Source of the DNA: Candidatus Falkowbacteria bacterium
Lineage (GTDB): Bacteria; Patescibacteriota; Patescibacteriia; Patescibacteriales; JALSMD01
DNA: 26,496 bases
Reading direction: 5' to 3'
NCBI GenBank assembly: GCA_026987855.1
Contig: JALSMD010000005.1
Coordinates: forward strand, 1-26,496
A program made the position numbers and the translations under genes. Shown piece after piece: positions 1,234 to 5,149 of this stretch (the first letter of the stretch is position 1; each line of letters begins with the position of its first letter). Below the pieces are notes generated by a model, which was not told the origin of the DNA, made no database searches, and saw only the letters and a program-made list of their open reading frames with translations.

Positions 1234-1533
1234 TTATTTAGTAAGCATTTTTAATAATTCTGGGTTTATTTTGCTAGGGTCTATATTTTCTACACCACCA
1301 ACATTAAGACCTGACTTTAGGTTTAATAATTCTTGATATTGAGCAAAAACATCTTTAAGTAATGGTGGCAAATAGATAATACCCAAAATAATAGGAACAA
1401 TTATTAAGACTAATTTTAAAAATCCAATAATCTGGGAAAATATAATATATCTCCTTATATATTTAGTCATTTTATGAATTTCTTTAGTTAGTTTTAAATT
1501 TTCCTCTAAAAGATTCTTAATGTCATTCTCCAT
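1234..1533 (-). CDS. Small membrane hypothetical protein (99 aa)
   Basis: Charged N-terminal helix, then a hydrophobic stretch (IIFSQIIGFLKLVLIIVPIILGIIYLPPLL); 20 nt downstream of nrdG. Confidence 0.8.
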   Translation of the reverse strand: MENDIKNLLEENLKLTKEIHKMTKYIRRYIIFSQIIGFLKLVLIIVPIILGIIYLPPLLKDVFAQYQELLNLKSGLNVGGVENIDPSKINPELLKMLTK

Positions 1534-1553
1534 ATTTTTATTTTAATTATTAT

Positions 1554-2267
1554 TTAGCCACGTAATTCACATAATTTTACATATTTATTGCCAATATTTT
1601 TCATTTCTAGTAATTCTTCTTCAGAATAAGATGGTATTCCTTCAAAATTTTTATTAACTAGCTGGGTATCTGAACGAAATTGCTGTAAATACCATTTTTC
1701 TGCGCCATTGATAGTTTTTCCTATATTTTCTATATCATCTTTGTTTAGTAATTGAGGAACAATAGTAGTTCTAAATTCATAGGCAACATAACCTTTCATT
1801 AATAAATGAATGCTTTCCATAATTCTTTCCATATCTGGCTGAACTCCAGTCACTAAATCATATTTATGTAATGGGGCCTTAATATCCATTGCAATATAAT
1901 CAATTATTTTATCTTTGATCAAACTATCTATTAGTTGTGGATTTGTCCCATTGGTATCTAACTTTACTTTAAATCCTATCTCTCTCATTTTTATTATAAA
2001 CTCAGGCAAATCTGTATGAAGTGTTGGTTCACCGCCAGTAATAACTACGGCATCCAATTTCCCTATACGTTTTTTAAGAAAATCAAGAAGATCATCCTCC
2101 TTGATTATGGGATGATCTTCTTGATTTCTATCGCCTGTGCTAGGCCAGACAAGCATGGGGTTATAACAAAAATGACAACGAAAATTACAATTTTTAGTAA
2201 AAATTACTGCTGCTAAATGTCCAGGATAATCAATTAAACTAAATTTTTCTAAGCCGCCTATAATCAT
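1554..2267 (-). CDS. nrdG: Anaerobic ribonucleoside-triphosphate reductase activating protein (radical SAM)
   Basis: CNFRCHFC radical-SAM motif, N-terminal SLIDYPG, ITGGEPT, DTNG and YEFRTT motifs; adjacent to nrdD. Confidence 0.95.
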   Translation of the reverse strand: MIIGGLEKFSLIDYPGHLAAVIFTKNCNFRCHFCYNPMLVWPSTGDRNQEDHPIIKEDDLLDFLKKRIGKLDAVVITGGEPTLHTDLPEFIIKMREIGFKVKLDTNGTNPQLIDSLIKDKIIDYIAMDIKAPLHKYDLVTGVQPDMERIMESIHLLMKGYVAYEFRTTIVPQLLNKDDIENIGKTINGAEKWYLQQFRSDTQLVNKNFEGIPSYSEEELLEMKNIGNKYVKLCELRG

Positions 2268-2273
2268 ATTATA

Positions 2274-2423
2274 TTAATAGGACTCTCTTAACTGCTTATC
2301 AAAAGTTTTTCTGTCATTAAATTCACTCTTCTTACCTTTATTCCAATTTTTTACCGGAGTAAGCCAACCTACTACCCGGCTATAAACAATACATTCTTGT
2401 CTTTGTGTTTGTTTTGGAGACAT
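2274..2423 (-). CDS. Stand-alone NrdD C-terminal glycyl-radical domain (49 aa), absent from the ORF track
   Basis: Manual translation: MSPKQTQRQECIVYSRVVGWLTPVKNWNKGKKSEFNDRKTFDKQLRESY*. YSRVVG(W)L.PV..WN.GK..EF.DRK matches the C-terminal glycyl-radical segment of class III RNRs. ATG at 2423, TAA at 2274-2276. Confidence 0.92.
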   Translation of the reverse strand: MSPKQTQRQECIVYSRVVGWLTPVKNWNKGKKSEFNDRKTFDKQLRESY

Positions 2424-2434
2424 ATTTATTAAAC

Positions 2435-4507
2435 TTAATTATTAATTATTTTTGTATTTATTGTAGTATTTTCTTCTTCTTTTATATAACCAATTTCAGC
2501 ATCACATTTAGGACAATATTTATGTTCTCCAGGCAAATATCCATGTTTAGGACAAATAGAAAATGTAGGTGTAATAGTAAAATAAGGTAGATGGTAGTTT
2601 TCAGCGATTTTCTTTATTAACCTTTTACAAGCTTCTGGATCGCTAATACGCTCTCCAATAAATCCATGTAATACAGTTCCTCCTGTATACTTAGTTTGTA
2701 ATTCATCTTGCAAATCAAGGGCCTCAAAAATGTCATCAGTAAAATTAACTGGCAAGTGAGATGAGTTTGTATAATACGGATCCGCCCCTCTCTCTTTAAC
2801 AGCCTCATCATTGGCTACTATGATATCTGGATATAATTCTTTATCTTTCTTGGCAAAACGATAAGTGGCGCCTTCCGCAGGAGAAGCTTCTAAGTTATAT
2901 AAATTATTTGTTTCATTTTGATAATCCATCAACCTCTCCCTCATCCAATCTAATACTTCTAAAGCAAATTTTCTGCCACTATATGTAGTAATATCTTGAC
3001 CAATAAAGTTGATTAAAGCTTCATTCATCCCATTAATTCCAATTGTGCTAAAATGATTCTTCCAATAAGAGCCAAAACGTTTTTTAATATCTGATAAATA
3101 ATATTTTGAATAAGGATAAAGACCGCCTTCGGTTAATTTTTCTATAATTTTTCGTTTAATTTCTAAACTTTCTTTAGCCAAATCCATCAATCTGTATAAC
3201 CTTTCCTTAAAATCGTCTTTATTTTTTGATAAATAACCAATGCGTGCTAAATTAATAGTTACTACTCCCAAGCTGCCAGTTAGAGGGTTAGCTCCAAATA
3301 AGCCGCCTCCTCTTTTTCTTAATTCTCTATTATCAAGACGCAAGCGACAACACATACTGCGCGCGTCATCTCTACTCATATCAGAATTGATAAAATTAGA
3401 AAAATATGGAATGCCATATTTTGCTGTCATTTCCCAAACAGGTTTTAAGCATTCGCGGTTCCAATCAAAATTTTTGTCAATGTTATAAGTGGGTATAGGA
3501 AAAGCAAACACTCTGCCACTCGCATCACCTTCAATCATTACTTCTGCAAAAGCCTTATTAAAAATATCCATCTCCTCCTGAAAGTCTTTATATTTCTCTG
3601 GCATTATCTGACCACCAATAATTACATTTTCTTCTCCCATTTGTTCTGAAGGAATTACATCTAACGTAACATTAGTAAATGGTGTCTGAAAACCGACACG
3701 AGTGGGAACATTTACATTAAACATAAACTCCTGTAAACATTGCTTTACCTCTTTATACGACAAATTATCATAACGAATAAAAGGAGCTAAATAAGTATCA
3801 AAATTAGCAAAGGCTTGAGCGCCTGCTGCTTCGCCTTGCAAGGTATAAAGAAAATTGACAATTTGTCCTAAAGCGCTGCGAAAATGTTTTGGGGGTTTGC
3901 TTTGAACTTTATCTTTCACGCCGCCAAAGCCCTTTATTAAGAGATCACGCAAATCCCAGCCACAACAATAAGGAGCTAACATTCCCAAGTCATGGATATG
4001 AAAATCCGCGTTAATGTGAGCTTCTCTAATTTCTTTTGGATATAACTTATTAAGCCAATAACGAGCAGAAACAGAAGAAGCAATATAATTATTGAGTCCC
4101 TGAACAGAAAAGCTCATATTACTATTTTCATTTAATCTCCAATCAAGCTTTCCCAAATAATCTTCAACAAGTTTATCTTCATTAAGAGCTTTTATATCAC
4201 GTAATTGTCTGCGTTGGTCTCTATACAATATGTAAGCTTTTGCTATTTCAATTTCTTTATTTTTTATTAAAACTCCTTCTACAATATCCTGAATTTCTTC
4301 AACTGCTGGAATACTTCTTGAATGAAATTTTTTATTTAACTCTTTAACAACTTGTTCGCTTAATTTTTTGGCTAGTTCTTTATCATCACCTCCGACCGCT
4401 TTGATTGCTTTAAAAATAGCGTTTGTAATCTTGTCTTGGTTAAAATCTACGATCTCTCCAGACCGTTTAATAATTTTTTTAATAGTATTATCTTTTTTAT
4501 TTGGCAT
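2435..4507 (-). CDS. nrdD: Class III (anaerobic) ribonucleoside-triphosphate reductase, large part lacking the glycyl-radical motif
   Basis: N-terminal ATP cone (IIKRSGEIVDFNQDKI), HIHDL, YCCGWDL, finger-loop SMCCRL, LEASPAE, YTGGT and metal site CPKH...CPKC. Ends 22 residues after CPKC with no RxxGY motif. Confidence 0.95.
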   Translation of the reverse strand: MPNKKDNTIKKIIKRSGEIVDFNQDKITNAIFKAIKAVGGDDKELAKKLSEQVVKELNKKFHSRSIPAVEEIQDIVEGVLIKNKEIEIAKAYILYRDQRRQLRDIKALNEDKLVEDYLGKLDWRLNENSNMSFSVQGLNNYIASSVSARYWLNKLYPKEIREAHINADFHIHDLGMLAPYCCGWDLRDLLIKGFGGVKDKVQSKPPKHFRSALGQIVNFLYTLQGEAAGAQAFANFDTYLAPFIRYDNLSYKEVKQCLQEFMFNVNVPTRVGFQTPFTNVTLDVIPSEQMGEENVIIGGQIMPEKYKDFQEEMDIFNKAFAEVMIEGDASGRVFAFPIPTYNIDKNFDWNRECLKPVWEMTAKYGIPYFSNFINSDMSRDDARSMCCRLRLDNRELRKRGGGLFGANPLTGSLGVVTINLARIGYLSKNKDDFKERLYRLMDLAKESLEIKRKIIEKLTEGGLYPYSKYYLSDIKKRFGSYWKNHFSTIGINGMNEALINFIGQDITTYSGRKFALEVLDWMRERLMDYQNETNNLYNLEASPAEGATYRFAKKDKELYPDIIVANDEAVKERGADPYYTNSSHLPVNFTDDIFEALDLQDELQTKYTGGTVLHGFIGERISDPEACKRLIKKIAENYHLPYFTITPTFSICPKHGYLPGEHKYCPKCDAEIGYIKEEENTTINTKIINN

Positions 4508-4530
4508 GGGGATTAAAGTTAATTTTTATA

Positions 4531-4998
4531 TTATATTTTCTGTTTTCTCTTCTTAAGTAATTTATTTAGTTCTCTTTGAAAAGTATGAACATCTTTAAAA
4601 GATTCATAAACGCTAGCAAAACGTATATAAGCAACCTGATCAACCTTTTTTAAGTTTTTCATCACTATTTTTCCTACCTGTTTAGAGGTTATCTCGTTCT
4701 TTTTCAACTTTTGTAAATCTCTTTCAATAGCATTAACTAATTTTTTAAACTTTTCTTCTGTAATTGGTCTCTTTTCTAATGATTTTTTTAAGCCATTTAT
4801 TAACTTTTCTCTGCTATATGCTTCTCTCCTACCATCTCTTTTAACAATAATTAAATCTAAAATTTCTATTCCTTCGTATGTAGAAAACCTAAAACCACAT
4901 TTCAGACATTCTCTTCTGCGCCTAATAGAAAAACCATCATTAGAGGCTCTAGAATCAACTACTTTCGTATCATCATGATAACAGATTGGACATTTCAT
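4531..4998 (-). CDS. nrdR: Transcriptional repressor NrdR
   Basis: Zn ribbon MKCPIC...RRRRECLKC, ATP cone (VKRDGRRE), VAYIRFASVY. Start set at ATG 4998 rather than the track's TTG at 5004. Confidence 0.96.
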   Translation of the reverse strand: MKCPICYHDDTKVVDSRASNDGFSIRRRRECLKCGFRFSTYEGIEILDLIIVKRDGRREAYSREKLINGLKKSLEKRPITEEKFKKLVNAIERDLQKLKKNEITSKQVGKIVMKNLKKVDQVAYIRFASVYESFKDVHTFQRELNKLLKKRKQKI

Positions 4999-5064
4999 AA
5001 ACAAAAAAACACCTAGTTATTTAAACCAAAAAATTTATAAAATATTCTAAGTGTTTTTAAAACA

Positions 5065-5080
5065 ACACTATATATTGTGT
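5065..5080. promoter_or_regulatory. NrdR box 1
   Basis: ACACTATATATTGTGT matches the NrdR-box consensus acaCwAtATaTwGtgt at all positions. Confidence 0.9.
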
Positions 5081-5097
5081 ATCTAATCTTTATTTAA

Positions 5098-5113
5098 CTA
5101 CTATATATTGTAT
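5098..5113. promoter_or_regulatory. NrdR box 2
   Basis: CTACTATATATTGTAT has an intact core CTATATATTG; starts 33 nt from box 1 and abuts the predicted transcription start. Confidence 0.8.
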
Positions 5114-5121
5114 CTATTTAT

Positions 5122-5149
5122 ATAATAGCATTTTTAATAAAAAAGTCAA
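5122..5149 (-). promoter_or_regulatory. Sigma70-type promoter of the nrdR-nrdD operon
   Basis: TTGACT-N16-TATTAT with an extended -10 (TGc). Confidence 0.7.

Follow-up and report, generated by a model that had tools for sequence, protein, structure and literature searches.

The DNA analyzed here is a 26,496-nucleotide (nt) stretch of contig JALSMD010000005.1 from a Candidatus Falkowbacteria bacterium, referred to below at its full length as the window, and the system in question is its class III (anaerobic) ribonucleotide reductase (RNR), NrdD. The open reading frames (ORFs) of the window revealed a tightly packed minus-strand operon in the order nrdR, NrdD core, a 49-amino-acid (aa) tail ORF and nrdG. 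The nrdD core (2435–4507, minus strand) encodes 690 aa with an ATP-cone (PF03477) and a barrel, in which the NxN flap (N126/N128), the YCCG motif (180–183), the finger loop SMCCRL (384–389) and two metal knuckles, CPKHG at 652–656 (CPKH 652–655) and CPKCD at 665–669 (CPKC 665–668), were located. Its C-terminus is an unconserved extension of 21 aa. A score of 1068 bits against NCBIfam NF006126 (cut-off 548) places this barrel in the NrdD family (PF13597; NF006126/TIGR02487). The glycyl-radical motif RVxG[YFW] is absent from the core chain and lies instead, as RVVGW, on the 49-aa ORF (2274–2423, minus strand; MSPKQTQRQE-C11-IVYSRVV-G19-W...), in which G19 is the radical glycine. Comparison with the Pfam NRDD profile (PF13597) showed that the core matches positions 1–529 of 562 (621 bits, 2.1e-186) and the tail positions 530–562 (1.1e-8), the two ORFs tiling a single profile with zero overlap and zero gap.

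The core ends with a TAA stop (2435–2437), and a junction of 11 nt (2424–2434, minus strand) separates it from the tail ATG at 2423, which opens a different frame. Six nt past the tail begins nrdG (1554–2267, minus strand; 237 aa), whose product matches the NrdG2 model TIGR02495 with 202 bits (cut-off 131) as well as PF04055, so that a dedicated radical S-adenosylmethionine (SAM) activase stands directly downstream of the tail. Upstream, the tail frame is shut by TAA TAA at 2439–2444, and stops occur in all three frames within the 60 nt before the ATG; since all three are closed, no single indel can join the core and tail frames. The original prediction, which was made from the letters of this DNA and its ORFs, had described a 690-aa NrdD with ATP cone, YCCG, SMCCRL and metal site lacking the glycyl motif, a 49-aa ORF carrying the missing segment 11 nt on in another frame, and a tail frame closed upstream and thus not explained by simple read-through. 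The located motifs, the profile boundary at 529/562 and the stop codons agree with each of these descriptions. It had also called for an indel check over the junction, and none was found at the level of assembled contigs: across 1500–5100, the contigs of four public runs from two studies, one run being labelled hydrothermal vent metagenome, show two single-base differences elsewhere and zero inserted or deleted letters. Single contigs at depth 76 and 65 cover this whole stretch, and the junction is also crossed by separate contigs from the two remaining runs.

We interpret the locus, with a probability of about 85%, as an NrdR-controlled operon encoding an obligate two-subunit class III ribonucleotide reductase. 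This reading is based on gene structure, conservation, purifying selection and a predicted interface. The arrangement is far beyond chance, since the ORFs tile one profile and the split recurs in 70 of the 111 related genomes with a tail match. In the proposed mechanism, core and tail would be translated separately from one NrdR-regulated transcript, the tail from its own ATG. The core would supply the ATP-cone, the ten-stranded barrel, the thiyl-radical finger loop and the metal knuckles, and the tail would dock at the knuckle region, the NxN flap and the barrel mouth, the place taken by the C-terminal glycyl-radical domain of single-chain enzymes. NrdG with SAM would abstract a hydrogen from Gly19 of the tail, and the Gly19 radical would in turn generate the catalytic thiyl radical on the finger loop of the core. 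The split lies in a linker of about five residues that runs from the second CxxC knuckle to the RVxG motif and leads to a module that is mobile in single-chain enzymes.

Analysis of the window's genome (750 kb, 86% complete) revealed exactly one NrdD core and one tail. Because the tail is the sole copy of the radical segment in this genome, it is the regular subunit and not a spare. No match to a class I/II RNR catalytic domain or to the glycyl-radical domain of the pyruvate formate-lyase (PFL) type, PF01228, was obtained in this 86%-complete genome, while control genomes were positive in both searches. The two-piece NrdD is the only de novo deoxynucleotide route found there.

To place the split among relatives, 401 Patescibacteria genomes were searched with the tail, and about 8 kb around each match was classified by script. 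Of the 111 genomes with a tail match, 70, the window's genome included, contain only the split form and 36 only the fused form; the remainder comprise one genome with a fused and a split paralogue, one with a fused NrdD and an extra free tail, two in which the locus is cut by a contig end and one in which it is broken mid-gene. The split is the majority form among the sampled NrdD-bearing Patescibacteria. A tabulation of split versus fused genes had been proposed with the original prediction, together with the suspicion that the split might not be unique; relatives are clearly not all fused, and the suspicion proved well founded within the phylum and, as described below, in Halanaerobiales, Synergistota and DPANN archaea.

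The junctions of the 71 split loci (those of the 70 split-only genomes and the split paralogue of the mixed genome) are highly varied. The tail starts in relative frame 1, 2 or 0 in 27, 26 and 18 loci, respectively, and core stop and tail ATG lie a median of 27 nt apart (range −35 to +428 nt). Core stop codons are TAA in 52 cases, TAG in 12 and TGA in 7, and a GGAG-type motif, resembling a Shine–Dalgarno (SD) sequence, is found at most 18 nt from the start of 28 tails. Junctions so varied mean that no single indel, slippery site or read-through explains the set. On a maximum-likelihood tree of 109 core sequences, from which the tail columns had been removed, the split/fused label requires only 4 changes, against 32.6 in label shuffles, and well-supported branches force at least three of the 4. 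The state has thus been passed down through deep divergences, with only a few origins or reversions.

The position of the break also differs between lineages. In the window's clade, both knuckles are on the core and the tail begins about 10 residues before the motif. In family f52 (L070, L098, L100, L103 and L110), the break falls inside the second knuckle, the core ending with ...GEHYEC and the tail starting with M.SKCGKKTLVYSR. A very divergent clade, listed with f52 among the knuckle-divided loci (L112, L114, L120–L122), has the entire second CxxC (CPFCGS) on the tail. Any metal site in these loci must be built from both chains, because the knuckle is divided between core and tail.

Several individual loci of the phylum sample deserve mention. 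L032 (1925–5437, genome G077) consists of nrdR, a complete fused NrdD of 764 aa with its own tail, an ORF of 69–89 aa (4342–4611) and nrdG, and the small ORF encodes two CxxC pairs followed by a near-identical copy of the tail (TEVYSRVVGYIRPVEQWNKGKRTEF). Core frames of 1004–1557 aa, compared with the usual length of about 700, were found in six split loci (L015, L020, L033, L043, L052 and L058) and two fused ones (L023 and L065), and probably reflect inteins or other insertions in the barrel. Two NrdD paralogues stand side by side in each of L024 (genome G346) and L028 (genome G207); in G346, the first is a fused copy of 774 aa and the second a core without a cone, whose 46-aa tail is split off.

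The tail itself behaves as a conserved gene. A search restricted to proteins of similar length yielded 138 clusters, at 90% identity, of stand-alone tails of 44–72 aa, many of them on contigs of 50–500 kb and some carrying the source name 'anaerobic ribonucleoside-triphosphate reductase'. An alignment of 37 of these tails showed a near-invariant M-S/A-P start and invariant residues at R8, C11, Y14, S15, R16, V17, V18, G19, W20, P23, N28, G30, K31, E34, D37 and R38. Purifying selection is evident from a dN/dS of about 0.08, at a mean dS of 1.7, over 176 pairs among 31 tail genes of the subfamily, drawn from the window and the genome collection. The stand-alone tail has no model in Pfam or NCBIfam; it matches only the ends of full-length NrdD models, below their cut-offs. 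A further search of representatives with the tail returned best 150 matches that were all short (47–123 aa); it was excluded from counting, because contig-end fragments or the HMMER length correction could cause such a short-only result.

The residue following the radical glycine varies across the phylum. Gly19-Trp20 is encoded at 2364–2369 of the window, and the tryptophan is invariant in the 37 Falkowbacteria-type sequences. Across the 111 tails of the phylum sample, the residue is tyrosine in 103, lysine in two, phenylalanine in two and tryptophan in one, that of the window, and was unread in three. In both G346 and G207, the fused copy with the ATP-cone has Gly-Lys and not Gly-Tyr at the radical site.

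A wider scan with the tail alignment covered bacteria and archaea, with one genome per species, and gave 594 confirmed stretches, from which the best 80 loci were kept. Among these best 80 of 594, 68 are split and 8 fused; the other 4 are free tails that lack an NrdD within 3.5 kb. The type found in the window (MSP...RVVGW) occurs in metagenome-assembled genomes (MAGs) named Candidatus Falkowbacteria, Parcubacteria or Patescibacteria group. Split loci are also present in the cultured Orenia metallireducens MSL40 and Halanaerobium saccharolyticum, in Acetomicrobium, Pyramidobacter and other Synergistota, in Bacillota MAGs, and in the DPANN archaea Iainarchaeum, Micrarchaeota and Woesearchaeota. 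In the Halanaerobiales and Synergistota loci, the gene order is core, nrdG, tail; with nrdG separating core from tail, the tail is an independent cistron.

Two further groups of loci stand apart. L198 (3212–3632, a Thermodesulfobacteriota MAG) and L200 (3104–3635, the Olavius algarvensis symbiont Delta 3) encode longer free tails with CxxC knuckles of their own (..KCEPCFEK.. and ..KCNTCYEK..), and the 3.5 kb flanking them on each side contain neither an NrdD core nor nrdG. L129, L131, L135, L139 and other TPA_asm contigs named 'uncultured Gammaproteobacteria bacterium' carry a Falkowbacteria-type split nrdD with a tail 74–85% identical to that of the window; the organism names attached to these assemblies do not look trustworthy.

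Co-folding of core residues 110–690 with the tail gave ipSAE values of 0.87, 0.86 and 0.87 in three runs, compared with 0.00 for the best of three controls; the mark used is reached by 55 of 80 solved complexes and by 3 of 110 mismatched pairs. The prediction supports core–tail binding but, as a co-fold, shows likeness and not binding. On the core side, the predicted interface involves the knuckle region (648–669), the NxN flap (126, 129–132) and barrel segments, and on the tail side nearly all of residues 7–45. Comparison of solved NrdDs in the PDB showed about five residues between the CxxCG knuckle and the RxxGY motif. In NrdD from Prevotella copri, cryo-electron microscopy and hydrogen–deuterium exchange revealed a highly dynamic glycyl-radical domain, which is fully disordered when dATP is bound in the ATP-cone (PMC11226230). 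Given this short linker and the mobility of the domain in the single-chain enzyme, the break corresponds to the hinge of a module that must move anyway.

Cys11 of the tail was considered as a candidate fourth ligand of the zinc site. In the co-fold, tail residues 7–23 are predicted to lie against C652, C665 and C668 of the core, and the cysteine upstream of the motif is kept in 71 of 71 split tails and absent in 12 of 40 fused proteins. Against this idea, the histidine of CPxH is replaced by a cysteine in some relatives (L076, L081 and L101), which suggests that the core already has four ligands.

Regarding the control region, nrdR (4531–5004, minus strand; 157 aa) is the first gene of the operon, and its product, a repressor, combines a zinc ribbon (PF22811, 9.3e-22) with an ATP-cone (PF03477, 2.1e-20). 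Directly upstream of it lie two NrdR-box palindromes (5065–5113, minus strand), 33 bp apart, the box at 5065–5080 being a perfect match to ACACWATATATWGTGT and that at 5098–5113 having 3 mismatches. These adjacent two are the only matches in the 26.5-kb window. As at least two matches anywhere were obtained in 16 of 100 shuffles, the boxes were weighed by position and pairing and not by count: the feature of an NrdR regulon, a pair of 16-bp boxes spaced by about three helical turns in front of an nrd operon, is present here. Immediately upstream of the boxes is a sigma-70-like promoter (5122–5149, minus strand; TTGACT-16-TATTAT with a TG extension), recognized by consensus match alone in a region where the number of such sites equals the shuffle expectation. 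An Rfam search of the window gave no match, and the window therefore contains no known recoding or riboswitch element.

Several points weigh against an obligate two-subunit enzyme. No SD-like motif precedes the tail in the window, and the same is true of nrdG here. The genomes counted in the census are related, and their tallies do not represent independent events. The evidence from the public runs consists of assembler contigs in place of raw reads, and this very DNA may itself derive from two of the runs. The genome is incomplete, and another reductase may sit in the missing part. The passing co-fold scores may stem from the model's memory of single-chain NrdD structures. Finally, we infer from the genes that the two chains are translated separately and assemble non-covalently, that the small one receives the radical and that the complex is catalytic. 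Structurally, the two-component class III RNR put forward in the original prediction has gained strong support on five sides: conservation, selection, independent assemblies, variable junctions and a co-fold that passed its controls.

Why the two-subunit enzyme came to be split may be explained in two ways. Neutral fission in a tolerant hinge or linker, later locked in, accounts for the arrangement equally well as an adaptive origin, in which the tail would serve as a replaceable radical carrier: an O2-cleaved tail would leave, and a fresh tail activated by NrdG would restore the same core at a cost of 49 aa. This extension of the two-subunit reading is a tentative one, which we hold to be rather unlikely. 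It is plausible as chemistry and has a precedent in GrcA/YfiD, since PFL is known to be cleaved by O2 at its radical glycine and to be rescued in trans (PMC8683613, PMC13450708), and the glycyl-radical domain of single-chain NrdD is mobile (PMC11226230). The extra stand-alone knuckle-and-tail ORF that L032 carries between its fused nrdD and nrdG has the layout that a true GrcA-like spare of a class III reductase would be predicted to show, whereas the window's genome has one tail gene serving as a regular part, and many strict anaerobes retain fused enzymes. Formulated more fully, and with the same reservation, the tail could be a dissociable radical cartridge that NrdG charges and the core accepts, cleaved tails being swapped and tail release switching the enzyme off. 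If true, a built-in spare-part mechanism would for the first time be seen in a glycyl-radical enzyme that is not a formate-lyase, and subunit dissociation would act as an allosteric switch.

A very improbable alternative is that programmed recoding (frameshift, stop read-through or bypass) or protein splicing yields one chain from the two ORFs. The gap of just 11 nt would suit recoding, as would the 18 of 71 loci in which both ORFs share a frame, some with a single stop between them; the other 53 loci, however, are distributed over the two remaining frames, the gaps extend from overlap to several hundred nt, no slippery or bypass element is conserved across them, many tails come with a GGAGG and an ATG of their own, and in other lineages the whole of nrdG intervenes between core and tail. 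As for splicing, split-intein halves would have to be far longer than the extensions seen here, 21 aa on the core and 10 aa on the tail, and an HN/C junction is absent. Read-through and a split intein were rejected on these grounds: frame spread, variable gaps, intervening nrdG and short extensions. A mobile element as the cause of the split was likewise looked for, and neither such an ORF in the 11-nt gap nor intein junction residues in the extensions were found.

Least probable of all is a sequencing or assembly error, or a recent inactivating frameshift, in a true or ancestral fused nrdD, with the 49-aa ORF as a pseudogene remnant: artefactual one-off indels close to a gene's 3′ end are common in low-GC, homopolymer-rich MAGs, and one relative, L094, resembles a gene broken mid-barrel, but we rejected assembly error and simple frameshift in view of the indel-free, concordant assemblies from both studies, the closed frames, the recurrence of the split with its start codon kept, a split state inherited across deep branches and the low dN/dS of the tail. 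In L094 itself (genome G078), NrdD is divided into overlapping frames of 434 and 340 aa, which looks like an ordinary frameshift or assembly error, in contrast to the conserved tail split.

Split NrdD is widespread, annotated piecemeal in databases and uncharacterized. No description of it was found in the full-text literature searched, including reviews of RNRs and glycyl-radical enzymes, in which split class II enzymes and PFL spares do appear. To our knowledge, all characterized glycyl-radical enzymes have the radical glycine on the catalytic chain, and the only free-standing radical carriers known to us are GrcA/YfiD and Y06I, which are spares for PFL. A 2026 review states that the existence of such proteins for other glycyl-radical enzymes is yet to be determined (PMC13450708). 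A size filter of 400–1100 aa has been applied in RNR phylogeny (PMC9531940); filters of this kind discard the tails and may leave the cores looking truncated or non-functional. In the two-subunit reading, the radical-bearing segment of an essential enzyme would be a separate 5.8-kDa protein, as the normal state in most NrdD-bearing Patescibacteria sampled and also in cultured Halanaerobium and Orenia. This opens the study of how an activase charges a free glycyl-radical module, how the module docks and how it might be exchanged after O2 damage.

Among known systems, the closest are the single-chain NrdD–NrdG pairs of phage T4, Thermotoga maritima (4COI/4U3E) and Prevotella copri (8P23). They have in common with the window's locus the profile, the ATP-cone, the finger-loop cysteines and the knuckles, as well as the RVxG radical motif, the adjoining radical-SAM activase and NrdR control. 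Here, unlike in these enzymes, a separate 49-aa chain holds the final 33 profile positions with the radical glycine, and the catalytic chain thereby departs from one defining feature of the family; the core ends in 21 unconserved extra residues, and the tail opens with the conserved 10-aa leader MSPxxTxRQE; and tryptophan, not tyrosine, follows the glycine in the window's subfamily.

Aeromonas phage Aeh1 NrdA is split by a homing-endonuclease gene, and its catalytic subunit works as two polypeptides. That split is due to a mobile endonuclease gene, whereas an 11-nt gap without a mobile element separates the two chains here. A split class II enzyme, NrdJa/NrdJb of Pseudomonas aeruginosa, is likewise a catalytic chain encoded by two adjacent ORFs that must assemble (cited in PMC9669993). 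It differs from the present case in belonging to the B12-dependent class and in its break point, NrdJb being a large folded C-terminal domain and not a 49-aa carrier.

GrcA/YfiD from Escherichia coli and Y06I from phage T4 are likewise small, free glycyl-radical proteins that complete a large barrel enzyme in trans (PMC8683613, PMC13450708), a role that is predicted for the tail. GrcA, a homologue of the PFL C-terminus (PF01228), is a spare that occurs alongside full-length PFL. No full-length parent with its own radical domain was found in the window's 86%-complete genome. Judged from its homology, the tail is not a member of the GrcA/YfiD family, as it has neither PF01228 homology nor a full-length parent. 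In contrast to GrcA, it is of the NrdD type (matching PF13597 only), one third the size, and the sole radical segment of its enzyme.

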